Origin: Pseudomonadota bacterium
Lineage (GTDB): Bacteria > Pseudomonadota > Alphaproteobacteria > G022571365
Length of the DNA: 64,000 nt
Assembly (NCBI GenBank): GCA_022571365.1
Contig: JACZXZ010000002.1
Location: forward strand, 14,402 to 78,401
Direction of reading: 5' to 3'
A program made the translations under genes and the position numbers. The notes under the pieces are model-generated. The model did no database searches. It was not told the DNA's origin and worked only from the letters and a program-made list of their open reading frames with translations. Positions within the stretch are counted from its first letter, which is position 1, and each line of letters starts with the position of its first letter. Shown piece by piece: positions 6,241 through 32,971 of the stretch.

Positions 6241-7518
6241 ATGTTCGATCTCAAATGGATCCGCGACAATTCGGCGGCCTTCGACGCCGGGCTCAAGGCC
6301 CGCGGCGTGGGGCCGACAGCCGCGCGCGTCATCGCGCTCGACGAGAAGCGCCGCGAGGCGCTCACCGCCGCCCAAGAAATCCAGGCCCGGCGCAACAAGC
6401 TGTCCAAGGAGATCGGCATCGCCAAGACCAAGGGCGAGGACGTGAGCGGGATGATCCGCGCCGTATCGGCCGAGGAAGAGCTCCAGGCTGAAGCCGAGGA
6501 ACGGGTGCGGCAATTGGCCGCCGGGCTCGACGAGCTGCTCGAAGGCCTGCCCAACCTGGCGGCCGATGACGTGCCGGTGGGGGAGGACGCCAGCGCCAAC
6601 GTCGTCTTGCGCACCGTCGGCGTGAGGCCCGAATTCGACTTCACGCCCAAGGAGCATTTCGAGATCGGCGCGGGGCTGGGCCAGATGGACTTCGAGCGGG
6701 CGGCGAAGATGTCCGGGGCGCGGTTCGTCGTGCTCACCGGCGCGCTCGCCCGGCTCGAGCGGGCGCTCGCCCAGTTCATGCTCGACCTCCACACCACCGA
6801 GTTCGGCTACACGGAAGTGAGCCCGCCGCTCTTGGTGCGGGACGATGCTGTGTTCGGCACCGGGCAGTTGCCGAAATTCGGCGCCGATTTGTTCCGCACC
6901 ACCGACGATTACTGGCTAATCCCGACGGCCGAGGTGCCGCTCACCAACCTGGTGCGCGAGCGGATTCTCGACGAGGGCGACCTGCCGCTCCGATTCACCG
7001 CCTTCACCGGCTGCTTCCGCTCCGAAGCCGGAGCCGCCGGCAAGGACACCCGCGGCATGTTGCGCCAGCACCAATTCTACAAGGTCGAGCTGGTCAGCAT
7101 CACCCATCCCGACCACTCGGAGGCCGAACTCGAGCGCATGACGTCCTGCGCCGAGGAGGTGTTGAAACGGCTCGGGCTCCACTACCAGGTGGTGGTCCTG
7201 TCCACCAGCGACATGGGATTTGCCGCGCGCAAGACCCTCGACATCGAGGTCTGGCTGCCCGGCCAGGAGGCCTACCGCGAGATTTCCAGCTGCTCGAACT
7301 GCTGGGACTTCCAGGCCCGGCGCATGAAGGCGCGCTTCAAGCCGGCGGGGGGCAAGGGCACGCGCTTCGTCCACACCCTCAATGGCTCCGGCCTTGCCGT
7401 CGGGCGCACCCTGATCGCGCTGCTGGAGCACTACCAGCGCGCCGACGGCTCGGTCGAGATGCCGACGGCCTTAAGACCCTATATGGACGGGCTCGAGGTC
7501 TTGACCGCCGATGTTTAA
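6241..7518 (+). CDS. serS: Seryl-tRNA synthetase
   Basis: 425 aa; N-terminal coiled-coil arm, class II motifs ([21 protein letters not shown]; [15 protein letters not shown]). Confidence 0.95.
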
Positions 7519-8293
7519 GTGGCCGCTCGACCTCGCCCGGGCGCGGATCCTGATCTCGAATGACGACGGCGTTTACGCGCCCGGCCTGAAGCTCCTGGAG
7601 CGAATCGCCCGCCAGTTGTCGAAGGACGTCTGGGTGGTGGTGCCGCAAATCGAGCAAAGCGCCGCCAGCCATTCGCTGACCCTGTCCCGGCCGCTCAGGA
7701 TCCGGAAGCTGTCGCCGCGCCGCTACTGGCTGGACGGCACGCCCACCGACTGCGTGCTGCTGGCGATCAAGAATATCCTGAAGGACCATCCTCCCGACCT
7801 GGTGCTGTCCGGAGTGAACCGGGGCGGCAATCTGGGCGAGGACGTCACCTACTCGGGCACCATCGCCGCGGCCATGGAGGCGACGCTCTTGGGCGTCCCG
7901 GCGATCGCCTTGAGCCAGTATGTGGTCGGCAACAACCGGACCAAGTGGCAGACCGCCGAGCGTCACGCGCCAGGGCTCATCAGGCGGCTGGTCGAGGTGA
8001 CCTGGCCCGCGGGCGTGGTCGTCAACGTCAACTTCCCCGACGTTCCCGCCGATGAGGTCACGGGGATCGAGATCACCCGCCAGGGTCGGCGCAAGGTCGG
8101 CGACGAGCTTCAGGAACGGCTTGACCCGCGCGGCAGGCCCTATTACTGGATCGGCAGCATGCGCAGGGAGGAGCTGTCGCGGCCCGGCACGGACCTGGCG
8201 GCGGTCCACCAGGGCGCCATTTCGGTAACACCGCTCTACCTCGACCTGACTCACGCGCCGACCGTCAAGGCGTTCAGAAAGACTTGGCATTGA
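7511..8293 (+). CDS. surE: 5'/3'-nucleotidase SurE
   Basis: [16 protein letters not shown]-terminal motif; 260 aa; overlaps serS stop. Confidence 0.9.
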
Positions 8294-20676: not shown

Positions 20677-23598
20677 TTGACCACGCCGCCCGCACCGCCT
20701 GAATACGACATCACGATCGTGAGCCTCGAGGAGGAGATGAAGCACTCCTACCTCGACTACGCCATGAGCGTGATCGTGGCCCGCGCGCTGCCCGACGTGC
20801 GCGACGGGCTGAAGCCGGTCCACCGCCGCATCCTTTACGCCATGAAGGAGGGCGGCTACGACCGGGCCAAGCCGTTCCGCAAGTCGGCGCGCATCGTCGG
20901 CGACGTCATGGGCAAGTACCACCCCCACGGCGACGCCGCCATCTACGACGCCATGGTGCGCATGGCCCAGGATTTCTCCATGCGGCTCATGCTCATCGAA
21001 GGGCAGGGCAATTTCGGCTCCATGGACGGCGACCCGCCGGCCGCCATGCGTTACACCGAGGCGCGGCTCGCCCGCTCGGCCGAGGCGATTCTCGAGGATT
21101 TCGACAAGGGCACGGTCGACTTCAAGCCCAGTTACGACGGCAACGCCCAAGAGCCCGCCGTGCTGCCGGCCCGGTTTCCCAACCTGCTGGTCAACGGCGC
21201 CGGCGGTATCGCCGTCGGCATGGCGACCAACATCCCGACCCACAACCTGGGCGAGGTGATCGACGCCTGCTGTGCCTACGTGGACAATCCTGAGATCACC
21301 ATCGACGAGCTGATGGAGCACCTGCCGGGGCCGGACTTCCCGACCGCCGGCATCATACTCGGCAGAACGGGCATCCACGAAGCGTATCACACCGGTCGTG
21401 GCTCCATCGTCATGCGCGGACGCGCCGAAATCGAGGAGATCCGCAAGGATCGCCAGGCCATCGTCATCACCGAGATCCCGTATCAGGTCAACAAGTCGCG
21501 GATGGTCGAGCGCATCGCCGAGCTGGTTAGGGATAAGACCATCGAGGGCATCGTCGATCTGCGCGACGAGTCCGATCGCCACGGCGTCCGCGTGGTGGTC
21601 GAGGTCAGGCGCGATATCATCCCCGAGGTGGTGTTGAACCAGCTCTACCGTTACACGCCACTGCAGACCAGCTTCGGCGTCAACATGCTGGCCTTGAACC
21701 GCGGCCAGCCGGAGATGATGAATCTCAAGGACATCATCGCCCTCTTTATCGACTTCCGCGAGCAGGTCATCACCCGGCGCACGATATTCGAACTCAACAA
21801 AGCGCGGGCGCGCTCCCACATCCTGCTCGGCCTCGCCATCGCCGTGATCAACCTGGATCCGGTGATCGCGCTGATCCGCAAGGCTTCCGATCCGGCGGCC
21901 GCGCGGGCCGCGCTCAGGAAGCCGCCGTGGCCGGCCGGCGAGATGGAGGCGCTGATCCGCATGATCGACGAGCCGGAACAGAGCCTTAAGGACGGCGCCT
22001 ACCGCCTGTCGGAAGAGCAGGCGAAGGCGATATTGGAGCTCAGGCTCCATCGCTTGACCGGGCTCGAGCGCGACAAGATCGTCGAGGACTTGAAGGCGCT
22101 CGTCGATCAGATCTCCGGATATCTCGAGATCCTCGGCTCCCGGGAGCGCCTTTTGGAGATCCTGCGCCGCGAGCTTCAGGAGATGAAGGAGGAATTCGCG
22201 ACCCCGCGCCGCACCCAGATCGAGGAGATCGAGTTCGAGCACGACATCGAGGACCTGATCCAGCGCGAGGAGATGGTCGTCACCGTCACGCACACCGGCT
22301 ACATCAAACGGGTGCCGCTGTCGACCTACCGGGCGCAGCGCCGCGGCGGCAAGGGCCGGGCCGGCATGGCCACCCGCGAGGAGGACTTCGTCAGCCAGGT
22401 CTTCGTCGTCAACACCCACACCCCGGTCCTGTTCTTCTCCTCGCGCGGCATCGTCTACAAGATGAAGGTCTACAGGCTGCCCTTGGGCGCCCCGCAGGCG
22501 CGCGGCAAGGCGCTGGTCAATCTGTTGCCGCTGGAGGAGGAAGAGACGATCACCACCCTGATGCCCATGCCCGAGGACGAGCAAAGCTGGGGCGAACTCC
22601 ACGTCATGTTCGCCACCTCGGCCGGCCATGTCCGGCGCAACAAGCTGTCGGATTTCGTAAACGTCATGGCCAAAGGCAAGATCGCCATGAAGCTCAAGAA
22701 CGGCGACCAGCTCGTCGGCGTTCAGACCTGCACCGAGGACGACGACGTGTTGTTCGCCACCGGCGGCGGCAAGTGCATCCGCTTTCCGGCCACCGACGTC
22801 CGGGTGTTCAGCGGCCGCTCCTCGATCGGCGTCAGGGGCATCAGACTAGCCTCGGGCGATAAGGTCATTTCGATGTCGATTCTCACCCACATCGCAGCCG
22901 ACCCGAAGGATCGGGAGGAATACCTGCAAGCAGTCAACGCCAAGCACCGGCTTGCCAGCACCGAGTACACCGGCAAATCGGAGGAGAAAGCCCGCGATGA
23001 GCAGCGCGCCGCGCGGCTTGACGAGCAAAATTTCGTCGAGATGGCCGAGCACGAGGAGTTCATCCTGACGGTTGCCGAGAATGGTTTCGGCAAGCGTACC
23101 TCGGGTTACGACTACCGGATCGCCCGGCGCGGCGGCAAAGGCATCGGCAGCATGGAGCTGGAGCGCGACGGGAACGCCGTGGTCGCGGCGTTTACTGTCA
23201 CCGACGACGATCAGATCATATTGATGACCGACGGCGGGCAGATCATTCGATGCCCGGTGAATGACATTCGCGTCGCGCGGCGCGCCACCAGGGGAGTCAC
23301 CGTGTTCAAGCTCGCGGAAGGCGAGAAGGTGGTGTCGGTGTCGCGCCTCGGTGACGTCGGCGTCGAAGGCGACGGAGAAGAAGCAGGCGACGGAGAAGAA
23401 GCAGGCGAGGGCGAAGAGGCGGCGGACGGAGCGGCGGAATCGGAGGCGACGACCGTGGAGGACGACGGCAAGGGGGATGGTGGAGCGACGGCATCGGAGG
23501 CGACGGCCGTGGAGGACGACGGCAAGGGGGATGGTGGAGCGGCGGAATCGGAGGCGACGGCCGTGGAGGACGACGGCAAGGGGGACGGAGAACAATGA
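20677..23598 (+). CDS. gyrA: DNA gyrase subunit A
   Basis: 973 aa; [36 protein letters not shown] region, active-site Tyr region (AAMRYTE), C-terminal beta-pinwheel repeats and acidic tail; TTG start at 20677. Confidence 0.97.
23380..23590 (+). repeat. Tandem repeats encoding the GyrA acidic C-terminal tail (18-bp x2 then ~60-bp x3)
   Basis: GGCGACGGAGAAGAAGCA x2; GGAGCG(A/G)CGG(C/A)ATCGGAGGCGACG(G/A)CCGTGGAGGACGACGGCAAGGGGGATGGT x3 giving [16 protein letters not shown] repeats. Confidence 0.85.
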
Positions 23599-24116
23599 GC
23601 GAGTCGCACACCGGCGTCTATCCGGGGACCTTCGATCCGACCACGAACGGCCATCTCGACATCATCTGGCGGGCGCTGCGGACCGTCGACCGTCTGATCG
23701 TGGCGGTCGCCGTCCATGCCGAAAAGGAGACGCTGTTCGACGTCGATGAGCGGGTCGAAATGATGCGCGAGGAGATTGCCACCCTGGACCGGAGCGAGGC
23801 CGGGCGGATCGAGGTCCATTCCTTCGACACCCTGCTCATGGACTTCGTCCAATCCGTCGGGGCCTCGATCATCATCCGGGGCTTGCGGGCGGTCTCGGAC
23901 TTTGAATACGAGTTCCAGATGACCGGCATGAACCGTCGCCTCAACCCGGATGTCGAGGCGGTGTTTCTCATGGCCTCGGAGGCGCACCAGTTCATCGCCT
24001 CGCGTCTGATCAAAGAGATCGCGCGCCTGGGCGGCGATATCTCCCCGTTCGTCTCGCCCCGTGTCGCCCGGCGCCTCGCAGAGCGCATCGCGGAACGGCG
24101 CCGGTCGCGGAAATAG
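23595..24116 (+). CDS. coaD: Phosphopantetheine adenylyltransferase
   Basis: [17 protein letters not shown] (HxGH nucleotidyltransferase motif); 173 aa; start overlaps gyrA stop. Confidence 0.92.
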
Positions 24117-24129
24117 CCAGAACGGACTC

Positions 24130-24600
24130 TTAGAGCCAGCGCCTGACGGACGCCTTGTAGGCCAGGTACGCCGCGCCGAACTTCCCCTCCAGGTACCGTT
24201 CCTCGCGGGCGATCACGCCATAGCGGATGACGGCGAGGGCAGGCACGAGCAGTCCCAGAATCCACGGATTGTCCGCGACGATCCCGATTCCCGCGTGGAT
24301 CAGGCTCAACGACAGATAAATCGGGTTGCGGGAGAGCCGGAAGGGGCCCGTGGTGACGAGCGCGGTGGTCGGCTTGTGCGTTACGACGTTGGTGCCGGCC
24401 TTGCGGAGGCGCCGCATGACGAGGGCTATGATGACGACGCCCGGGAAGATGAGCGCAAGTCCGGCGGCGAATTGCCCGGTGCCCGGAAGGATCGCGGCCG
24501 GCCAGACATAATCGAGCCCCAAACCAAGCCCGAGAAATCCCAGATAGATGACCGGCGGCGGGGCGATGACCCCGGGGCAATCCCTGTTGTCTGCGGTCAC
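24130..24600 (-). CDS. Isoprenylcysteine carboxyl methyltransferase (ICMT)/phospholipid methyltransferase family membrane protein
   Basis: GPFRLSRNPIYL and REERYLEGKFGAAY motifs, 4-5 TM; GTG start. Confidence 0.7.
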   Translation of the reverse strand: MTADNRDCPGVIAPPPVIYLGFLGLGLGLDYVWPAAILPGTGQFAAGLALIFPGVVIIALVMRRLRKAGTNVVTHKPTTALVTTGPFRLSRNPIYLSLSLIHAGIGIVADNPWILGLLVPALAVIRYGVIAREERYLEGKFGAAYLAYKASVRRWL

Positions 24601-24652
24601 GATCGGCGTCTTCCTCGGGTGTCTGCGGTCACGATCGGCGTCCTCCTCGGGG
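24588..24652. repeat. 32-bp tandem duplication spanning RBS and GTG start codon of the ICMT-family gene
   Basis: TGTCTGCGGTCACGATCGGCGTC(T/C)TCCTCGGG x2 (one mismatch); second copy out of frame with the CDS. Confidence 0.85.
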
Positions 24653-24920
24653 TTTCAGGCTAGTCGTTCCGATCCGGCGATCCAAGCCGCTGCGCCCGAC
24701 CCCCAGGGGCGAGGGCCTTGTATCAGGAGCTTTCAAGCCGCCTGGCCGAGTGGTGCGGGCGCCTGGCAAATGGTGCGAGCTCCTGGCGAGGCCCCGCCTA
24801 TCGCCGGGCAAACCGCGCCCGAAAGAGAGGGCTGGAACTGGGGTGGCGTCACCGGCGCCGTGGCGCCGGCTAAGCGGCGGCGCCGACTATTGACCGGCTC
24901 CGGCCCCAGACCTATGTTCC

Positions 24921-24943
24921 GGCCTATGTTCCGCGGCGTCAGG
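24921..24943. repeat. 12-bp tandem duplication (CCTATGTTCCGG x2) immediately upstream of tRNA-Lys, duplicating a -10-like TATGTT
   Basis: TTGACC-N17-TATGTT promoter-like arrangement (24888-24928) with the TATGTT-containing 12-mer duplicated. Confidence 0.6.
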
Positions 24944-24952
24944 GGCGCGTAG

Positions 24953-25028
24953 CTCAGTCGGCAGAGCAACGGACTTTTAATCCGCAGGTCCCCGGTTCGA
25001 ATCCGGGCGCGCCCACCAATCAAAATCA
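24953..25028 (+). tRNA. tRNA-Lys (anticodon UUU)
   Basis: GGGCGCG acceptor stem, GCTCAGTCGGCAGAGC D-arm, anticodon loop CUUUUAA, TTCGAATCC T-loop, encoded CCA. Confidence 0.92.
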
Positions 25029-25468
25029 ATGATTCATCCGGAGCCTCGCGGACGATAAGCCCCGCCAGGTCCTGGTTTGCAATTCCGGCCGCACCCATAG
25101 TCCGCACCGCCAACACTTGGGTCACGGAATTCCTCGACCTGGCCGAGCCGGCCGGCCTGCCATAATAGTACGGCGGGCAGGCTGGCGGGCGCCTGTCCGA
25201 AGCGGGAAATTCCCCTCATCCTGGACGACCTGGACCGGCTGCTCGCCCGCCGCCGCACATCCGGCGCGGAGCCGGTGACGAGCCCGTGAAGCGATTGGTC
25301 CTATCCGGCGTGAATTTCGGGAGCGCCGTTTCGTCGCCCGCCCGAGGGACCCGGCTCCTCCCGCGCGGGCCGGCGGAGGGTCCGATGCTAGGCTCATCGA
25401 CACCCGCGGCACACCAGCTTTGCGGCAGGCATGACGGCAGCTTGCCGCCCGCCGGCAGGACGCCCCTC

Positions 25469-26914
25469 TCAGCCGGCGCAACAGGGCAGTTTGCTCACGT
25501 CCTTCTCGAAACTCAGGGCCGCGAGCTTGAGGCCTTCCACAGTCGTCAGATAGGGAAAGATGGTCTCCGCCAGATCGGTCACGGTGAGGCCGTGTTTGAT
25601 GGCGAGCACGGCCGTCTGGATACTGTCGCACCCTTCCGGCGCCAGAATGTGCGCGCCGAGCAAGCGCCCCGTCTTCCCCTCGGCCACCAATTTGATGAGG
25701 CCGCGCGTGTCGCGCGCGGCGAGCGCCCGGGGCACCAGCGCCAGCGGGAGGATGGCCGTCGCCACCTTCAGGTCCCGGTCGCGGGCTTGGGCTTCGGTCA
25801 AGCCAACGCTGGCCACTTGGGGATCGGTGAAGGCGATGGACGGCATGGCCGTGGCGTCGTAGTGGCGTCCGTCGCCGTTCAGCGCGTTCTCGGCCGCGAT
25901 CTTGCCCCCGTAGGCCGCCATGTAGACGAACTGGTCCCGGCCGGTCACGTCGCCGGCGGCGTAGATATTCGAGCCCGTCGTGCGCAACCGGTCGTCCACC
26001 TTGATGCCGCCGTTCGGGGTCAGCTCCACACCGGCCTCCTTCAGGCCCAGCCCCTGCGTGTTGGGCCGGCGACCGGCGCTGACCAGAATCTTCTCGGCCT
26101 CGATCGTCTCGGCGGCTTCGTCGCCTCCGATTGAAATAGCCACGCCTTCCGCCGTCCGCCGGATTTCTCTGTAGGAGATTCCACTGCGAATGGTGATCCC
26201 CTCGTCTCGGAAATAGCCGGCCAAGGCCTCGCCGATCTCCGGCTCGGCTTCCGGGAGCAGCCGGCGCCGGCAGAGGACGGTGACCTTCACGCCCGCCCGG
26301 GCAAGCATCTGGGCGAGCTCGCAGCCGATATATCCGGCCCCGATCACAAGCAGCGAGGCGGGCAGGCGCTCGAGCTCCAGGGCGCTCGTGCTGGTCAGGT
26401 AAGGAACGTCCTCAATCCCGGGGATCGGCGGCACCGCGGCGGAGGCGCCCGTTGTAATGACGATCTTATCGGAGCGCAGCAGGCTGCCGTTCACCGCCAC
26501 GCCGTCGCCGGTAAGGCGCGCCGGACCCTCCATATAGGTGATGGCGCTGTAGGACGGCAGCGGATCGCTGTACTTGGTCCGCCGCAGGCTTGCCACCAGT
26601 TCATCCTTCTGCGCGACGAGCGCGCGCCAGTCACCCAGCTCCGCATGGCCGCGGATGCCGGCAAAGCGCGCGGCGGTTCGTGCCTGATGGAGGGTCTCGA
26701 CCCCGCGGATCAGCGCCTTGGAAGGGACGCAGCCGACGTTGACGCAGGTTCCGCCGATGGTCCCGTGCCCGATGAGCGCGACTCGCGCCCCAAGCTCGGA
26801 AGCTTGGATGGCGGCGGCAAATCCCGCCGAGCCGGCGCCGATGACGATCAGGTCCGGCGCCCCATTGGCCTGGCTGGCGCTGCTGTCGCAGCAAGCCCGC
26901 GTGGCGCTGGTCAT
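25469..26914 (-). CDS. merA: Mercuric reductase MerA, core form without N-terminal HMA (NmerA) domain
   Basis: Redox-active disulfide GGTCVNVGCVPSK, FAD/NAD(P) Rossmann motifs, C-terminal vicinal Cys pair ...KLPCCAG* diagnostic of MerA; start at MTSATRACC (ORF track extends further upstream). Confidence 0.85.
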   Translation of the reverse strand: MTSATRACCDSSASQANGAPDLIVIGAGSAGFAAAIQASELGARVALIGHGTIGGTCVNVGCVPSKALIRGVETLHQARTAARFAGIRGHAELGDWRALVAQKDELVASLRRTKYSDPLPSYSAITYMEGPARLTGDGVAVNGSLLRSDKIVITTGASAAVPPIPGIEDVPYLTSTSALELERLPASLLVIGAGYIGCELAQMLARAGVKVTVLCRRRLLPEAEPEIGEALAGYFRDEGITIRSGISYREIRRTAEGVAISIGGDEAAETIEAEKILVSAGRRPNTQGLGLKEAGVELTPNGGIKVDDRLRTTGSNIYAAGDVTGRDQFVYMAAYGGKIAAENALNGDGRHYDATAMPSIAFTDPQVASVGLTEAQARDRDLKVATAILPLALVPRALAARDTRGLIKLVAEGKTGRLLGAHILAPEGCDSIQTAVLAIKHGLTVTDLAETIFPYLTTVEGLKLAALSFEKDVSKLPCCAG

Positions 26915-26937
26915 TGCACGGTCCCGGTGCCGCCGGA

Positions 26938-27183
26938 TCAAGCGGGCCGGTCGGCCCCTTGTCTCGAGGCCCTGCGGGCCAGAGCGTAGCGCACCACCGC
27001 ATAGATGGTGATCGCGATAAAGATCGCGAGAAGTGGAAAGAGAATGTAATCGAGCCAGCCGCCAACCCACGCCGACAGCCCAACCACACCGAACAGAACC
27101 GCCAGCACCGGGGTGAAACAGCAGACCCCGGTGATGACCGTGCCCCAGCCACCTGTGCGAAGAAGATTTTCGTTGGTGATCAT
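26938..27183 (-). CDS. merF: Mercury transporter MerF-like (81 aa, 2 TM)
   Basis: TGVCCFTPVLAVLFGVVGLSA ... LDYILFPLLAIFIAITIYA closely parallels MerF; only one vicinal Cys pair (the C-terminal CC of canonical MerF is absent). Confidence 0.7.
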   Translation of the reverse strand: MITNENLLRTGGWGTVITGVCCFTPVLAVLFGVVGLSAWVGGWLDYILFPLLAIFIAITIYAVVRYALARRASRQGADRPA

Positions 27184-27341
27184 GAGAGTCTCATCCTTGT
27201 CGAATGGTTGACTCCGCCGGAGTCAACAGGTCCATGAAAATGGCTTTGCCGACCTGCATTCCTTCTATCGAGGGACGACGGAGACCCCTTGACGCCGGGA
27301 ACCGACCTTGCAAATCGCCGATGGATGGTCCAATCATAGGA

Positions 27342-27358
27342 CCTGTAGTAACTATAGG
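27342..27358. promoter_or_regulatory. Candidate MerR operator (imperfect dyad CCTGTAG-TAA-CTATAGG) in the merR / merF divergent intergenic region
   Basis: Near-palindrome centred between the merF start (27183) and merR start (27385); MerR-type operators lie in the spacer of the regulated promoter. Confidence 0.3.
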
Positions 27359-27384
27359 TTCAAGTCTTTTTTTGGAGGGTCGCC

Positions 27385-27804
27385 ATGCTCGAGATTGACA
27401 TACCGCTCCTCAAGATCGGCGCGCTGGCGGAGCGGATCGGCTGCAAGGTCGAAACCATAAGGTATTACGAGGCCATCGGGATTCTGCCGAAGCCCGGGCG
27501 CAGCGAAGGCGGCCAGCGGATCTACAATCGCGACCACTTGAAGCGTCTCAACTTCGTCCGCCGCGCCCGGAACCTCGGCTTCACCCTGGACGAGGTCCGC
27601 GCGCTGCTGCGCCTGGTCGACGAAAAGGGGCATAGCTGCGCCGAGGTGCGGGCGCTGGGGCGCGCCCATCTCGACGGCGTCCGCGCCAGGATCGCGGACC
27701 TTGAGGCGCTCGAAGCGGTGTTGGAGAAGCTGGTCCAGGACTGCGCCGGCGGCACGGTCCCGGAGTGCCCGATCATCGAGGCGCTGTTCCGGGAGGCGGA
27801 CTAG
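27385..27804 (+). CDS. merR: MerR family Hg(II)-responsive transcriptional regulator
   Basis: N-terminal MerR HTH (IGALAERIGCKVETIRYYE), coiled-coil, three Cys in MerR positions (C in GHSCAEV; C-x8-C in DCAGGTVPECP); divergent from merF-merA. Confidence 0.8.
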   Translation: MLEIDIPLLKIGALAERIGCKVETIRYYEAIGILPKPGRSEGGQRIYNRDHLKRLNFVRRARNLGFTLDEVRALLRLVDEKGHSCAEVRALGRAHLDGVRARIADLEALEAVLEKLVQDCAGGTVPECPIIEALFREAD

Positions 27805-27948
27805 GGTCCGCGCCAAACCGCCGGTTAGCTGGCAGCAGAGGCCCGCTTTGTGATAGAGTTTCGGTGCCCGACAGGCTCGTGTGGGAAATGCCGGATTAAG
27901 GATGTCGGGTAAGATCAATAAGAATACCGGGTAAGATCAAAAGGGAGG

Positions 27949-28536
27949 ATGACGAAAATGACGAGCGCGACTTCAATTCACCCTGCCGTGGATCAGGGTG
28001 TGAAACCTGGGGCGCAGGATTTTGCGGGCGGGACGCTCGTGTGCAAATGCGATCAAAACCCCGTTGAGGTAACGGTTAAAGGGCAATGTGCACATAATCA
28101 CGTATGCGGCTGCACGCAGTGCTGGAAGCCTGAGGGCGCAGTGTTCTCGCAGATCGCGGTCGTGTCGCGTGACAACCTCAGCGTAACCGCGAACGAACAT
28201 AAGCTTGAGATCGTGGACCCCTCCGCAGGTATTCAGCGATACGCCTGCACGGGGTGCGGCGTTCATATGTATGGCCGTATCGAAAACAAAAATCACCCAT
28301 TCTTCGGGCTTGATTTCATCCATACTGAACTATCCAAGGAAGACGGCTGGGCAGAACCTAAATTCGCGGCATTCGTTTCCTCAGTCATTGAATCGGGAAC
28401 CAAACCCGATCAGATGGATAGTATCAGAGCAAGGCTGAGAGAACTGGGTCTAGAGCCTTATGATTGCCTTTCGCCGGCCTTGATGGATGCAATTGCAACC
28501 CATACCGCCAAGGCAGCGGGCGTCTTGAGTGACTAA
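27949..28536 (+). CDS. gfa: S-(hydroxymethyl)glutathione synthase (glutathione-dependent formaldehyde-activating enzyme)
   Basis: Near-identical to Gfa across its length (IHPAVDxGxKP...FAGGTLxCKC...[16 protein letters not shown]...[11 protein letters not shown]...FAAFVSSxIESG...[13 protein letters not shown]); coding GC ~52% vs ~68% surroundings. Confidence 0.9.
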
Positions 28537-28790: not shown

Positions 28791-29900
<1,110 letters not shown>

Positions 29901-29962: not shown

Positions 29963-31372
29963 TCAAAGCCGGCACAGGGGAGGGGTCCCGAGGCGCTCGC
30001 GCGCCGTGCCCAGAGTCTTCTCGATGGCGAGGCCCAGGGCGAGAAGCCGCTCGTCCGCGCCATGGCGGGCCATGAGCTGGAGTCCGACCGGCATGCCCGC
30101 TTGGTCGCGTGCGACCGGTAGCGTGAGCGCGCACATCCCGAACATGTTGGCGATGGAGGTATTGCGCAGCGCGCGCATGTTCATGGAATGATAGCCATCC
30201 ATCCCGGTCACCTCGGCGACCGCCGGCGGCGTCACCGGAACCGTGGGCGAGGCGAGCAAGTCCACGGCCGCCAGACGCCGGCCCGCCGAGGCGGCCAGCT
30301 CGGCGCTTCGGCGGTTCGAAAAGCCCCCGGCCGGCATGCCGCCACTGGCGGAGATTCGCCCCGTAACCACGGGATCCAGGGTCCCCAGCCATTCCGGAAG
30401 CCGGCTGGACAGGAAGGCGGAGCGTTCGGCGGCGATGCCGCCGCGGCCGACCTTGGAATAGATCTCGGACGCCTCTGCGGCTTCCGGCAGCGCGATCCTC
30501 ACGAGCTTGGCGCCCCTGGCGGCCACCTCGTCGAGCGCGGCCTTCACGCCTTCGGCCACGCCCGGCGAGCAGTCATCCCAGAACAGATCGTCGCAGATTC
30601 CGAGCCTCAACCCCGCCACCTCCACGCCCGCCAACAGTTGCCGGAAGCGCTCGATATCGTCGCACTCGGGATCGATGCCCGGAAAGGCGAAGGCGATGTC
30701 GGCCACCGACCGCGCGAGCAGGCCGGCGGTGTCGTAGGTCGGGCTCAAGGGCACGATCCCCGCCGTCGACCACCGGCCGACGGTGGTCTTGAGCCCGACA
30801 TTGCCCGTCATGCTGGCCGGAATCCTGATCGACCCCCCGGTGTCGGACCCGAGCGCGAGGAATGCCGAGCCTTCGCACAGGCTCACGCCGGCGCCGCTCG
30901 ACGACCCGCCGGGCACGCGGTGGACCTTCGCGTCCCACGGATTGCGCGGCGTACCCCAGTGCGTGTTGGTACCCAAGCCGCCAAAAGCGAACTCGACCGT
31001 GTGGGTCTTGCCGGTGATCACCGCCGCCTGCCGGCGCAGGGCCTGGATCACGGGCCCCTCGGCTTCCCACTCTTCCGGCAACCGCCTGGGCGAGCCGGCG
31101 TAGGTCGGCAAATCCTTGACCCCGTAGATGTCCTTGACCGAGATGGGAATGCCTTGCAACGGCCCCGAATCGAGGCCGGCGGCGAAAGCGGCGTCGGCCG
31201 TCCGGGCCTGGGCCAAAGCGCCATCGGGGTCCCAGGTCTTGTAGGCGCCGAGGACCGGGTCGAGGTGGTCGTGTCGGGCGATCGCCTCCTCGGCGAGCGC
31301 CTCGGCGCTGGTGCGCCCGGCCCTGAGGGCCTCGGCCACCTCTTCAAGCGGTTGGTGCATGAACTCAGTCAT
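29963..31372 (-). CDS. Amidase signature family protein
   Basis: GGSSSGAGV...GSDTGGSIRIPA amidase signature with Ser-cisSer-Lys catalytic context; start at MTEFMHQPLEE. Confidence 0.8.
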   Translation of the reverse strand: MTEFMHQPLEEVAEALRAGRTSAEALAEEAIARHDHLDPVLGAYKTWDPDGALAQARTADAAFAAGLDSGPLQGIPISVKDIYGVKDLPTYAGSPRRLPEEWEAEGPVIQALRRQAAVITGKTHTVEFAFGGLGTNTHWGTPRNPWDAKVHRVPGGSSSGAGVSLCEGSAFLALGSDTGGSIRIPASMTGNVGLKTTVGRWSTAGIVPLSPTYDTAGLLARSVADIAFAFPGIDPECDDIERFRQLLAGVEVAGLRLGICDDLFWDDCSPGVAEGVKAALDEVAARGAKLVRIALPEAAEASEIYSKVGRGGIAAERSAFLSSRLPEWLGTLDPVVTGRISASGGMPAGGFSNRRSAELAASAGRRLAAVDLLASPTVPVTPPAVAEVTGMDGYHSMNMRALRNTSIANMFGMCALTLPVARDQAGMPVGLQLMARHGADERLLALGLAIEKTLGTARERLGTPPLCRL

Positions 31373-31427
31373 GGTGAGTGACCGTGGCGTGGAGTCGATC
31401 CCGCGGGGATCCGCCTTCCCGGCCCGA

Positions 31428-31928
31428 TTACGCGGCGCGGCGGCCGCTGAGCGCCGCCTCTTCAACGCGCACGCGGTGACGCAGCAGAAGGAGGTTCATG
31501 AGGGAGAAGACGAGGGCGATCTCCCACGCGCCGAAGGCGAGCGGCAGGATGGCGATCTCGGCGATCACCACCAGGTAGTTGGGATGGTGGAGGAAACGGT
31601 AGGGGCCGCGCTTGACCAGCGGCGCGCCGGGCAACGTGATGATCCGGGTCGTCCAGTATTTGCCCAGGCTCGCGATGGTCCAGACCCGCGCGGCCAACAG
31701 CGCGGCGAAGAGGCCGATGAGCGGCCAGTGGAGCGGCGCGTCCTCCGGCACCGCCAGCAGGAGGGCGAGGAGCCAGGCGCCGTGGAGCAGGATGAACAGC
31801 GGGTAATGGTCCGCCCCGACCTCCACCGCACCCTCGGCCAGCAGGCGCCGGGTGTTGCGCCGGGCGTGGACGAGCTCGCCCAGGCGCTGCAAGACGACCA
31901 GCGCGACGATCCAGTCGTGGATGCTCAC
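31428..31928 (-). CDS. ICMT-family membrane methyltransferase, translationally coupled to the type III PKS (SrsB-like)
   Basis: GPYRFLHHPNYL motif, 4 TM, 166 aa; start overlaps PKS stop (31925-31928). Confidence 0.7.
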   Translation of the reverse strand: MSIHDWIVALVVLQRLGELVHARRNTRRLLAEGAVEVGADHYPLFILLHGAWLLALLLAVPEDAPLHWPLIGLFAALLAARVWTIASLGKYWTTRIITLPGAPLVKRGPYRFLHHPNYLVVIAEIAILPLAFGAWEIALVFSLMNLLLLRHRVRVEEAALSGRRAA

Positions 31929-32971
31929 CCCACCTCCATGGTGAGAAACGCGGCCGTGAAGCCCGGCCCCAGCGCCGACAGGAGATAGCGGCCGGTATCG
32001 CCCGCTTTAAGCGCCCGGTCCAGAACGAACATGACGGAGGCCGCCGACATGTTGCCGTACTCTCTGAGAACGGCGCGGGCGTGGTCCAAGACGCCGTTGT
32101 CGAGGCCGAGCGCCGCCTCAAACGCGGCCAGCACCTTGGCGCCCCCGGGATGGCAGAGGAAGCTGTCGATGTCGTCCAAGCCCAGGTCCTGCCGCCCGAG
32201 AAAGTCTTCGAGCGCGGGGCGCAGCTGGTCGCGCACCAGGGCCGGGATATCGCGCGAGAACAGGACGCCGAGGCCGTCCTCCTCGACCCTCCAGCCCATC
32301 ACGTCGAGGGAGTTCGGCCAGGTGTGCTCGCCCCAAGCGGTTAACGTGGATCCGTTGCCGGTGCAGCCGATGAGGGCCGCGGCGGCGCCGTCGCCGAACA
32401 GGGCCGAGGCGATGACGTTGCTTTTCGATTGGTCGGTCCGACGGAAGGTCAGGCCGCACAACTCCACCACCAGGAACAGGATCTTCTGTTCCGGCGCCGC
32501 CTGGGCGAGGGCGGCGGCGCGGGCCAGTCCCAGCACGCCGCCGGCACAGCCCAGGCCGAAAATCGGCAGGCGCTGGACGTCGCGCCGCATGCCGAGGCGT
32601 TCCATGAGCAGCGCATCGAGGCTCGGGGTGGCGATGCCCGAGGTCGAGACCGCGACGATGCCGTCCACCTCCTCGACGCCGCACCCCGCCGCCGCCAGGC
32701 AGTCGAGGGTGGCACGCTCCAGAAGCGCGACGGCGTTATCGATATAGAGCCGGTTGCGTTCGACCCAGCCATGCTTTTTCTGGTACCAGTCCACCGGCAC
32801 GCAGGAATAACGCGTCTCGATGCCGGCATTTTCGTAGACGGGCAGCAGGCGCTCGATCTCGTCGCCGAGTTCGGGAAACAGCCGCCGGGCGTGGGCCGCC
32901 ACCTCCGATTGCCGCAATATGAAAGGCGGGACGGCGGTGGCGAGGGCAAGCAGTCCAGGTGCGGGCAGCAT
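31925..32971 (-). CDS. Type III polyketide synthase (chalcone/stilbene synthase superfamily)
   Basis: Catalytic Cys in FGLGCAGG, His in FLCHPGGAKV, Asn in GNMSAASV; 348 aa. Confidence 0.9.
   Translation of the reverse strand: MLPAPGLLALATAVPPFILRQSEVAAHARRLFPELGDEIERLLPVYENAGIETRYSCVPVDWYQKKHGWVERNRLYIDNAVALLERATLDCLAAAGCGVEEVDGIVAVSTSGIATPSLDALLMERLGMRRDVQRLPIFGLGCAGGVLGLARAAALAQAAPEQKILFLVVELCGLTFRRTDQSKSNVIASALFGDGAAAALIGCTGNGSTLTAWGEHTWPNSLDVMGWRVEEDGLGVLFSRDIPALVRDQLRPALEDFLGRQDLGLDDIDSFLCHPGGAKVLAAFEAALGLDNGVLDHARAVLREYGNMSAASVMFVLDRALKAGDTGRYLLSALGPGFTAAFLTMEVG

Follow-up and report, generated by a model that had tools for sequence, protein, structure and literature searches.

An intact three-gene merR/merF-merA module beside a tRNA-Lys gene, probably a mercury resistance operon of alphaproteobacterial type

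A 64-kb stretch of DNA from an uncultured alphaproteobacterial lineage (the window; positions are counted from its first nucleotide) carries a divergent merR and a merF-merA pair that probably constitute an intact and functional Hg(II) resistance operon, narrow in spectrum, alphaproteobacterial in type, and with no more than three genes left (Table 1). The gene set is of an ordinary kind, common in Alphaproteobacteria, and belongs to an already-known type of system. When all window ORFs were searched by phmmer with Tn501 and Tn21 probes, no merT, merP, merC, merD, or merE was found in the 64 kb, which upholds an earlier note on this DNA and adds merC to the absences it listed. The note's reading of a real minimal merR/merF-merA module is likewise supported, MerA and MerF both scoring above equivalog cut-offs. 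ORF calls and ARAGORN agree with its placement of the ORFs and of tRNA-Lys(UUU), but the gap between the merA stop codon and the tRNA gene is 450 bp, not ~440 bp. The locus shows merR-merF-merA to be a naturally occurring unit that is stable and inherited. Among the relatives examined it is the smallest regulated set for mercury detoxification, and as such it may be of use in metagenome annotation and in compact biosensor or bioremediation constructs.

Table 1. Features of the mer locus and its left flank (window coordinates).
Feature	Position	Strand	Description	Basis
tRNA-Lys(UUU)	24943-25018	+		ARAGORN; Rfam tRNA, 73.7 bits
Variable junction spacer	25019-25221	.	from tRNA to efflux-pump relic	contig comparison
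Putative truncated RND/AcrB-like permease gene end	25222-25290	+	22 codons plus stop (LDDLDRLLARRRTSGAEPVTSP); convergent with merA	
merA	25469-26914	-	core-only mercuric reductase, 481 aa	TIGR02053; PDB matches
merF	26938-27183	-	two-helix Hg(II) importer, 81 aa	NF033565; PF11431; PDB 2m67
Inferred merF-merA 5' leader	27184-27332	-	~150 nt	intergenic comparison
Perfect palindrome	27208-27226	.	19 bp, TTGACTCCG-G-CGGAGTCAA; 24 nt upstream of merF ATG	
Predicted MerR-type promoter/operator of merF-merA	27333-27363	-		read from sequence; architecture of relatives
merR	27385-27804	+	divergent MerR-family metal sensor, 139 aa	PF09278; PF13411; PF00376

MerA scores 543.8 bits on the equivalog model TIGR02053 (cut-off 454.45). 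The next family, lipoamide dehydrogenase, reaches 366 bits, under its cut-off of 408.8, and the scores on the models for RclA, hypothiocyanite reductase, and others are far under theirs. In the PDB the protein is closest to MerA 5x1y (E=6e-125) and the Tn501 MerA core 1zk7. Residues used to recognize MerA are a redox-active CxxxxC, a C-terminal Cys pair, and the substrate-site tyrosines Tyr194 and Tyr535 of Tn501 (Boyd and Barkay, PMC3466566). The window enzyme carries the full set, with the redox pair Cys57/Cys62 within GGTCVNVGC, the C-terminal vicinal pair Cys478/Cys479 within LPCCAG, and Tyr115 (TKYSD) and Tyr455 (FPYLT), which, matched by motif, would correspond to the two Tn501 tyrosines. 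The protein begins MTSATRACC, with Cys8/Cys9, and has no N-terminal HMA (NmerA) domain. It was thus rightly described as core-only with a C-terminal CCAG, but the suggestion that it is a specially reduced enzyme does not hold, as NmerA is absent from nearly all alphaproteobacterial-type MerAs and a core-only form is the rule in this clade. Rhizobial operons with NmerA-less MerAs are induced by Hg and confer resistance (PMC11227200).

The 81-aa product of merF was proposed for alignment with MerF, and it aligns across both transmembrane helices, with 87.1 bits on NF033565 (cut-off 50; residues 7-65), 65.6 bits on PF11431 (cut-off 24.3), and a match to PDB 2m67 over residues 5-71 (E=3e-16). It has no cysteines other than Cys21/Cys22 in helix 1 (GVCCFTPVL); none lies past residue 22, and thus the C-terminal CC pair is missing. 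The vicinal pair of helix 1 is essential for transport, the C-terminal pair has been reported as dispensable, and MerF alone suffices as an importer (PMC5500634). Since the C-terminal pair is reportedly dispensable and is absent from 26 of the 30 nearest MerF homologs, it is not family-defining; the cysteine pattern had been described correctly, but it represents the majority state and not a special reduction.

The regulator carries all three MerR Pfam domains (PF09278, PF13411, and PF00376). Its best NCBIfam match is TIGR02051 MerR at 125.9 bits, under the cut-off of 150.85, with the CadR-PbrR (119.7 bits) and CueR (119.6 bits) models close behind and under their own cut-offs; against solved structures it scores 106 bits with CadR, 103 bits with PbrR, and 95 and 84 bits with MerR. 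In an alignment with Tn501 MerR, all three Hg-ligand positions are occupied, Cys85, Cys120, and Cys128 matching Cys82, Cys117, and Cys126. The Cys triad had been noticed before, but the spacing then given, C-x8-C, is in fact C-x7-C, which all aligned alphaproteobacterial MerRs share. The protein groups with MerRs encoded beside merTP(F)A in ~30 aligned loci, and its clade is found, with a shared operator, beside ~50-55 alphaproteobacterial mer operons.

In the predicted merF-merA promoter, a -35 TTGAAC (27363-27358) and a -10 TATGAT (27338-27333) are separated by a 19-bp spacer, inside which lies the dyad ACCTATAGT-T-ACTACAGGT (27359-27341). A standard promoter scanner allows spacers of 16-18 bp only and therefore missed this promoter; the call rests on comparison with relatives, in which the layout TTGAnn / CTGTAGT-N-ACTACAG / TAnnnT lies between merR and merT in ~30 alphaproteobacterial loci. 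One half-site in the window is mismatched (CTATAGT vs. CTGTAGT in the clade). A divergent merR with a dyad inside a 19-bp-spacer promoter is the layout expected of an Hg(II)-responsive MerR. The promoter hexamers and RBSs of the mer genes are intact, that of merR being GGAGGG, 5 nt before the ATG.

The regulator scores could also be taken to indicate a system unrelated to mercury, in which a CadR/PbrR-like protein, responding to some other metal or to an oxidant, governs a small membrane protein and a flavoprotein disulfide reductase of generic type. CadR and PbrR are its nearest solved structures, it is nearly equal on the MerR, CadR-PbrR, and CueR models, and the operator half-site may resemble CadR/PbrR-type sites. 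This explanation is nevertheless highly improbable, as MerA stands 90 bits over the mercuric-reductase equivalog cut-off, with RclA and hypothiocyanite reductase far below theirs, and possesses both the MerA-specific C-terminal CC and the two tyrosines; in addition, the MerF family is mercury-specific, and the same regulator clade and operator accompany merT-merP-merA in ~50 loci.

For the preferred mercury resistance operon, a mechanism can be proposed from the characterized Tn501/Tn21 and pMER327/419 systems. A MerR dimer would occupy the dyad within the merF-merA promoter, whose 19-bp spacer is over-long, and hold Hg(II) through ligands from both subunits, Cys85 from one and Cys120/Cys128 from its partner; in the Hg(II)-bound state it would under-wind the spacer and turn on transcription. 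MerF would carry Hg(II) across the inner membrane through Cys21/Cys22 without MerP or MerT. MerA would take the ion at Cys478/Cys479, possibly after the Cys8/Cys9 tail, and pass it to Cys57/Cys62 for NADPH/FAD-dependent reduction to volatile Hg(0). The module probably originated from the usual merR/merT-merP-merF-merA order by loss of merTP, after which it stayed in the lineage until its codon GC resembled that of the host; an efflux-pump gene would have decayed on the merA side, and tRNA-Lys would have become adjacent only via a later deletion or rearrangement. Against this explanation stand a regulator that is under the MerR cut-off and slightly nearer to CadR and PbrR structures, the dyad mismatch, an unusually long leader with its palindrome, small polymorphism counts behind the inference of purifying selection, and the weakness of the matches that identify the pump relic.

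Loss of merTP is uncommon, seen in two or three of the 58 alphaproteobacterial-type loci with enough upstream sequence to be counted. Gene orders among these include merR/merTPFA (34), merR/merTPA (16), merR/merTFA (2), and merR/merFA (2). L104 is a clean second case of merR/merF-merA, and L032 is an intermediate in which a degenerate merT'-'merP fusion ORF precedes merF. With merT kept in 52 of the 58 loci, the three-gene module could instead be a decaying remnant that provides no useful resistance without merT/merP and is drifting toward pseudogenes, a view with which the relic state of the adjacent efflux-pump gene, the deletions segregating at that junction, the long leader, and the one operator mismatch would agree. 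However, merA, merF, and merR are full-length and uninterrupted by frameshifts or stops in seven or more metagenome assemblies of independent origin (L081-L085, L171, and L173), and pN/pS is 0-0.37, below 0.4 throughout, a figure with few substitutions behind it. Decay is also at odds with the intact promoter hexamers and RBSs, with the sufficiency of MerF alone as an importer (PMC5500634), and with the exchange of the merF cassette for an intact allele in place of its loss; on balance it is unlikely.

The module has the marks of an old acquisition that settled in this lineage long ago, as was proposed from the sequence in the first place. GC3 is host-like in merA (0.853) and merR (0.900; host 0.846 +/- 0.045), the genes are intact, and the merR-gfa-adhC junction is the same in lineages with 91-95% DNA identity. 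The claim that GC content matches the host stands for merA and merR; GC3 is lower in merF (0.72), and the adjacent gfa is a clear outlier (0.58).

The leader of merF-merA, 50-80 nt in relatives, is about 150 nt in the window and is 96-100% conserved relative to L171 down to position 27227. Its palindrome occurs once in the window, where chance would give 0.02 matches, and is otherwise present in near-identical contigs only, the right arm being missing from L171, and its center marks the position of a recombination breakpoint. The merF cassette has been replaced through recombination by another intact allele. A riboswitch or other structured RNA in the leader was rejected, there being no Rfam match and no unusual fold (fold z-score -0.10). 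A merP or merT relic was rejected because Pfam was empty in all frames; blastx gave one HMA-like match (E=0.047) against a tiny database with composition correction off. A 22-codon upstream ORF, MQVGKAIFMDLLTPAESTIRQG, the first 15 codons of which are kept in L171, was also set aside, as its Shine-Dalgarno sequence directly adjoins the ATG and conservation extends over the entire leader DNA.

On the other side of merA, the gap to the tRNA gene, which is preceded by a sigma-70-like promoter (24890-24918), contains a pump-gene relic only. An efflux-pump identity is weakly indicated by a Pfam ACR_tran match under its cut-off (E=3.4e-4, 18.9 bits). By phmmer the window relic matches a fragment in L084 (E=4e-7); the frame runs 74-76 codons in L084 and L171, and in L113 a full 1095-aa RND-like ORF lies convergent and directly past merA. 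Across contigs the right mer junction is conserved and the left is variable. Window positions 25045-25257 are missing from L087 and L173, the ends of the deletion showing CATCCGG microhomology; L086 departs from the window sequence ~22 nt past the tRNA, and L084 and L171 cease to match it to the left of 25223. The latter two have mer genes 99% identical to those of the window and share the merR-gfa-adhC right flank, but where the window has the tRNA they have pilin and ECF-sigma genes.

These junctions bear directly on the proposal that tRNA-Lys served as the integration site, the module being genomic-island cargo inserted site-specifically at the tRNA, with integrase and att repeats since eroded. 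The tRNA 3' end does face the module from 450 bp away, L086, the closest relative at this tRNA, has an unrelated flank from ~22 nt past it, and a tRNA lies 150-400 bp past merA in L002, L018, and L025, where ~0.3 would be expected by our own rough estimate. Yet in L084 and L171 the module and right flank lie beside pilin/ECF-sigma genes, the tRNA is absent, and more of the pump gene remains; tRNA adjacency is thus attributable to a later deletion or rearrangement, and the window arrangement cannot be the parent of theirs. Moreover, Pfam detected no integrase or transposase in the genes of the flanking ~10 kb to left and right, and the window contains no direct repeat of 12 nt or longer derived from the tRNA 3' end (11-mers being GC-rich chance matches), the lack of an integrase and of an att repeat having been reported at the outset; the GC3 of merA and merR equals that of the host, contrary to the composition of an island, and the mer-gfa-adhC junction is common to lineages 5-9% diverged. 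Island integration is therefore quite unlikely.

In a comparison of the tRNA-Lys flank among relatives, suggested by the earlier note, the L086 flank is different, its contig ending after 508 bp; at the protein level neither it nor the far flank of L084 showed homology to the window; and JGI metagenome contigs yielded no match to the tRNA 3' end with its flank. The note had regarded the same genes at a non-tRNA locus with full merTP as evidence against itself, and half of this was seen, loci of that kind with merTP(F)A being those of other genera. The tRNA is the neighbor of the module and not demonstrably its integration site, a warning that tRNA adjacency does not equal tRNA integration when population-level contigs indicate, as here, an origin by deletion or rearrangement.

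The closest known systems are the alphaproteobacterial merR/merT-merP-(merF)-merA operons, including that of a Sinorhizobium medicae accessory plasmid (PMC11227200) and L005, L010, L012, and L089. They share with the window the NmerA-less MerA clade (63-73% identity), the MerR clade with C-x7-C, the operator (TTGAnn, CTGTAGT-N-ACTACAG, 19-bp spacer), and merF immediately upstream of merA. Unlike them, the window has neither merT nor merP, in which only L104 and the partly decayed L032 are alike, and has a longer leader; unlike the S. medicae operon, it is chromosomal and syntenic across strains. The MerF of pMER327/419 (Tn5053 family, merRTPFAD), the source of characterized MerF, is 57% identical to that of the window over 65 residues and has the same two-helix layout and Cys21/Cys22, but possesses a second, C-terminal pair (Cys71/Cys72) and acts alongside MerT and MerP in a system with NmerA on MerA and with merD. 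Tn501 and Tn21 resemble the window in the divergent merR, the 19-bp-spacer promoter with internal dyad, a MerA core ~47% identical in which the Cys and Tyr set is unchanged, and a MerR 41% identical with the three Hg-ligand cysteines aligned. In contrast to them, the window is without MerT, MerP, MerC, MerD, MerE, and NmerA and is not transposon-borne, and Tn501 differs in its operator (TCCGTAC-N4-GTACGGA) and in C-x8-C.

The sole element of broader interest at the locus is the conserved N-terminal Cys pair of MerA. Among 60 NmerA-less alphaproteobacterial-type MerAs, 41 carry a vicinal Cys pair near the N terminus and five more retain one Cys; the tail consensus is M-x-[D/E]-C-C, 8-19 residues ahead of the FAD-binding GxGxxG, and we estimate the chance expectation at well under 1%. 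A Cys-pair tail also occurs in a planctomycetotal MerA (L040). Core-only MerAs elsewhere, such as those of Metallosphaera sedula (4ywo), Streptomyces, and Thermus, likewise lack NmerA, and in them Hg(II) presumably reaches the C-terminal Cys pair directly or via small thiols (PMC4500099). A tail like that of the window MerA and most of its clade was not found described for these other enzymes, nor was the motif found described in the openly searchable literature. Tentatively, the tail might be a minimal functional substitute for the ~70-residue NmerA, a flexible thiol arm that picks up Hg(II) where MerF or MerT faces the cytoplasm and hands it over to the C-terminal Cys pair; were it functional, it would account for the supply of Hg(II) to MerAs that have no metallochaperone domain. 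The MerA tail and merF have been swapped together as one recombination cassette, which would fit a co-adapted pair.

The mercury-resistance locus near tRNA-Lys(UUU) comprises merR and a divergent merF-merA operon, and probes for MerT, MerP, MerC, MerD and MerE found no match anywhere in the whole window. With MerA and MerF both scoring above equivalog cut-offs, the minimal module proposed in the earlier note is therefore confirmed, subject to two small corrections concerning the regulator (cysteine spacing and a score below cut-off).

Features of the mer locus and its surroundings (window positions)
Feature	Position	Strand
gyrA	20677-23598	+
coaD	23595-24116	+
PEMT/ICMT-like methyltransferase	24130-24600	-
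tRNA-Lys(UUU)	24943-25018	+
merA	25469-26914	-
merF	26938-27183	-
-10 TATGAT of merF-merA promoter	27338-27333	-
Operator dyad ACCTATAGT-T-ACTACAGGT, one mismatch	27359-27341	-
-35 TTGAAC of merF-merA promoter	27363-27358	-
merR	27385-27804	+
gfa	27949-28536	+
adhC	28791-29900	+
Amidase	29963-31465	-

The regulator contains three MerR Pfam domains; it scored 125.9 bits on the MerR equivalog model, below the curated cut-off of 150.85, and among solved structures CadR (106 bits) and PbrR (103 bits) matched it marginally better than MerR (95 and 84 bits). It can be aligned over its full length with regulators lying divergent from merT-merP-merA at some 30 loci of Alphaproteobacteria, and each of these has cysteines at the positions of Tn501 Cys82, Cys117 and Cys126. 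The cysteine triad noted earlier is thus present in the window protein, but its spacing, as in all of these relatives, is C-x7-C and not C-x8-C. The window and these loci, which differ in the window's lack of merTP, also have a promoter/operator in common (-35 TTGAnn, dyad CTGTAGT-N-ACTACAG, 19-bp spacer, -10 TAnnnT). On the basis of the alignment, the matching cysteines and the common operator, the regulator is treated as working like MerR of alphaproteobacterial mer operons. By analogy with the characterized Tn501/Tn21 and pMER327/419 systems, MerR bound to the dyad would repress the promoter and then activate PmerFA upon Hg(II) binding, MerF would import Hg(II) on Cys21/Cys22, and MerA would reduce it to Hg(0). 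The merF-merA leader is about 150 nt long, compared with 50-80 nt in relatives, and showed no unusual fold (z = -0.10) and no Rfam match.

MerA (481 aa) exceeded the cut-off of TIGR02053, the equivalog model for mercuric reductase (543.8 against 454.45 bits); among solved structures it is closest to MerA 5x1y and the Tn501 MerA core 1zk7. It retains Cys57/Cys62 (GGTCVNVGC), Tyr115, Tyr455 and the C-terminal Cys478/Cys479, and lacks the N-terminal HMA domain (NmerA). Relatives recovered in a one-genome-per-species scan and a metagenome-contig scan were at most 73% identical, the closest all being alphaproteobacterial. The 81-aa protein is MerF, as had been claimed (NF033565, 87.1 bits against a cut-off of 50; PDB 2m67, E=3e-16; 57% identity to the pMER327/419 protein), and Cys21/Cys22 are its only cysteines, bearing out the reported absence of a C-terminal pair. 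MerF requires only the first pair and can transport Hg(II) alone (PMC5500634). Both proteins are reduced relative to Tn501, as the earlier note held, but ordinary relative to their own clade: among 67 alphaproteobacterial-clade (alpha-type) MerAs (phmmer score ≥500), only two have long N-terminal extensions (five have incomplete N-termini), and 26 of the 30 nearest MerF homologs inspected lack the C-terminal pair. Rhizobial MerA operons without NmerA are Hg-induced and confer resistance (PMC11227200). At least one of these two extensions, that of Reyranella (locus L002, MerA ORF of 758 aa), resembles the extension of Bradyrhizobium centrolobii MerA (L003, 744 aa); both proteins are apparent MerB-MerA fusions, since the L003 extension holds FFCSDEHLSAW, a motif typical of the MerB C-terminus. 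Such fusions have been reported for some rhizobia (PMC11227200).

When the MerA N-termini of the window and of related loci L004-L034, L071 and L089-L126 were compared, a vicinal cysteine pair was found in 41 of 60 NmerA-less alpha-type proteins (a single Cys in 5, none in 14), typically as M-x-D/E-C-C, 8-14 residues ahead of GxGxxG. In the window it is Cys8/Cys9 (26888-26893), and MerA of the closely related contig L171 also has it (MSTTAQDCC). We could not find a description of this pair in the literature searchable without subscription; it is the sole feature of the locus of which this can be said. We hypothesize that it may act as a minimal NmerA substitute. A similar tail occurs in a Planctomycetota MerA (L040).

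The uncommon feature of the module is the loss of merTP. The alpha-type loci that extend far enough upstream for comparison number 58; of these, 34 are merR/merTPFA, 16 merR/merTPA, two merR/merTFA and two merR/merFA. One of the latter (L104) is a clean second case; the other (L032, Limimaricola pyoseonensis) has, between operator and merF, a 125-aa ORF (7375-7752) resembling a decayed in-frame merT'-'merP fusion, with AC in place of the MerT CC pair. L032 thus represents an intermediate stage of merTP loss and makes the route of reduction to merR/merFA visible. The merF cassette has been exchanged by recombination, because identity to L171, 94-100% over most of merA and over merR, operator and leader, falls to 59-73% at 26800-27225 (L171 5000-5450), spanning the first ~35 merA codons, merF and its RBS; L171 MerF is 85 aa and overlaps the merA start. 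The right breakpoint is the center of a 19-bp palindrome without mismatches (27208-27226), which occurs once in the window, against a chance expectation of 0.02, and is confined to this merF allele. At least seven independent assemblies have intact mer genes, and pN/pS, calculated from few substitutions, is 0-0.37, which speaks against the module being a dead relic.

The earlier note had seen neither an integrase nor an att repeat. In agreement, the neighboring genes include no integrase, nor any transposase, and direct repeats of the tRNA-Lys 3' end (≥12 nt) are absent from the window; GC3 (merA 0.853, merR 0.900) is that of the host (0.846 ± 0.045). The suggestion that tRNA-Lys served as the integration site was not supported. 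Metagenome contigs encoding identical or near-identical proteins show two arrangements. L081-L083 have that of the window, and so do L087 and L173 apart from a deletion of 25045-25257, the ends of which share CATCCGG microhomology. In L084, whose mer genes are 99% identical, and in L171, the match to the window extends only to 25223; beyond it, the ORF facing merA has 74-76 codons versus 22 in the window (25222-25290, +), and genes for a 467-aa protein with repeats, an ECF sigma factor and a Flp pilin lie further out, with no tRNA. The 76-codon fragment has weak similarity to the final transmembrane segments of RND/AcrB permeases (sub-threshold Pfam match, E=3.4e-4), and in L113 a full, convergent RND-like gene directly follows merA. 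As the pump relic of the window is contained within the longer version, the window's arrangement cannot have given rise to that of L084/L171, and the 450-bp mer/tRNA-Lys adjacency is therefore probably the product of a later deletion or rearrangement. For the tRNA locus itself, the nearest relative is L086, which is ~93% identical through gyrA-coaD-methyltransferase and unrelated from ~22 nt past the tRNA. Three other alpha-type loci have tRNAs in the window's geometry, on the strand opposite merA and 150-400 bp past its stop codon (L002 9628-9704, Arg; L018 1918-2096, Pro plus Met; L025 9569-9645, Met), exceeding the ~0.3 expected by our rough estimate.

On the other side, merR-gfa-adhC-amidase order is kept in L170-L173 at 95-99% identity. 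gfa looks recently acquired, given its GC3 of 0.582 (GC 0.536) against ~0.85 for the host; a 22-bp tandem direct repeat (TAAGGATGTCGGGTAAGATCAA / TAAGAATACCGGGTAAGATCAA, 27897-27940) lies directly upstream of its start. Sister contigs carry a ~297-bp insert between merR and gfa that the window lacks (L170 143-438, L171 6036-6331, L172 1-221). Within it, 107 bp are a ~91% identical copy of the 5' part of the adhC coding sequence (28839-28945 in the window), which points to insertion of gfa beside adhC by a duplication-generating event. L170 and L171 also lack ~1.2 kb (window ~31440-32650) between the amidase and a type III polyketide synthase region, containing a second ICMT-like gene, a further indel polymorphism of the neighborhood. 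The acidic tail at the end of GyrA (~23270-23598) includes three near-identical repeats, over which L081 and L173 align discontinuously, so that repeat number or assembly varies. A 32-bp tandem repeat (…CGGTCACGATCGGCGTCYTCCTCGGGTGTC…, 24600-24651) at or upstream of the methyltransferase 5' end is present in two copies in the window and ~4 in L087, and is thus a variable-number repeat.
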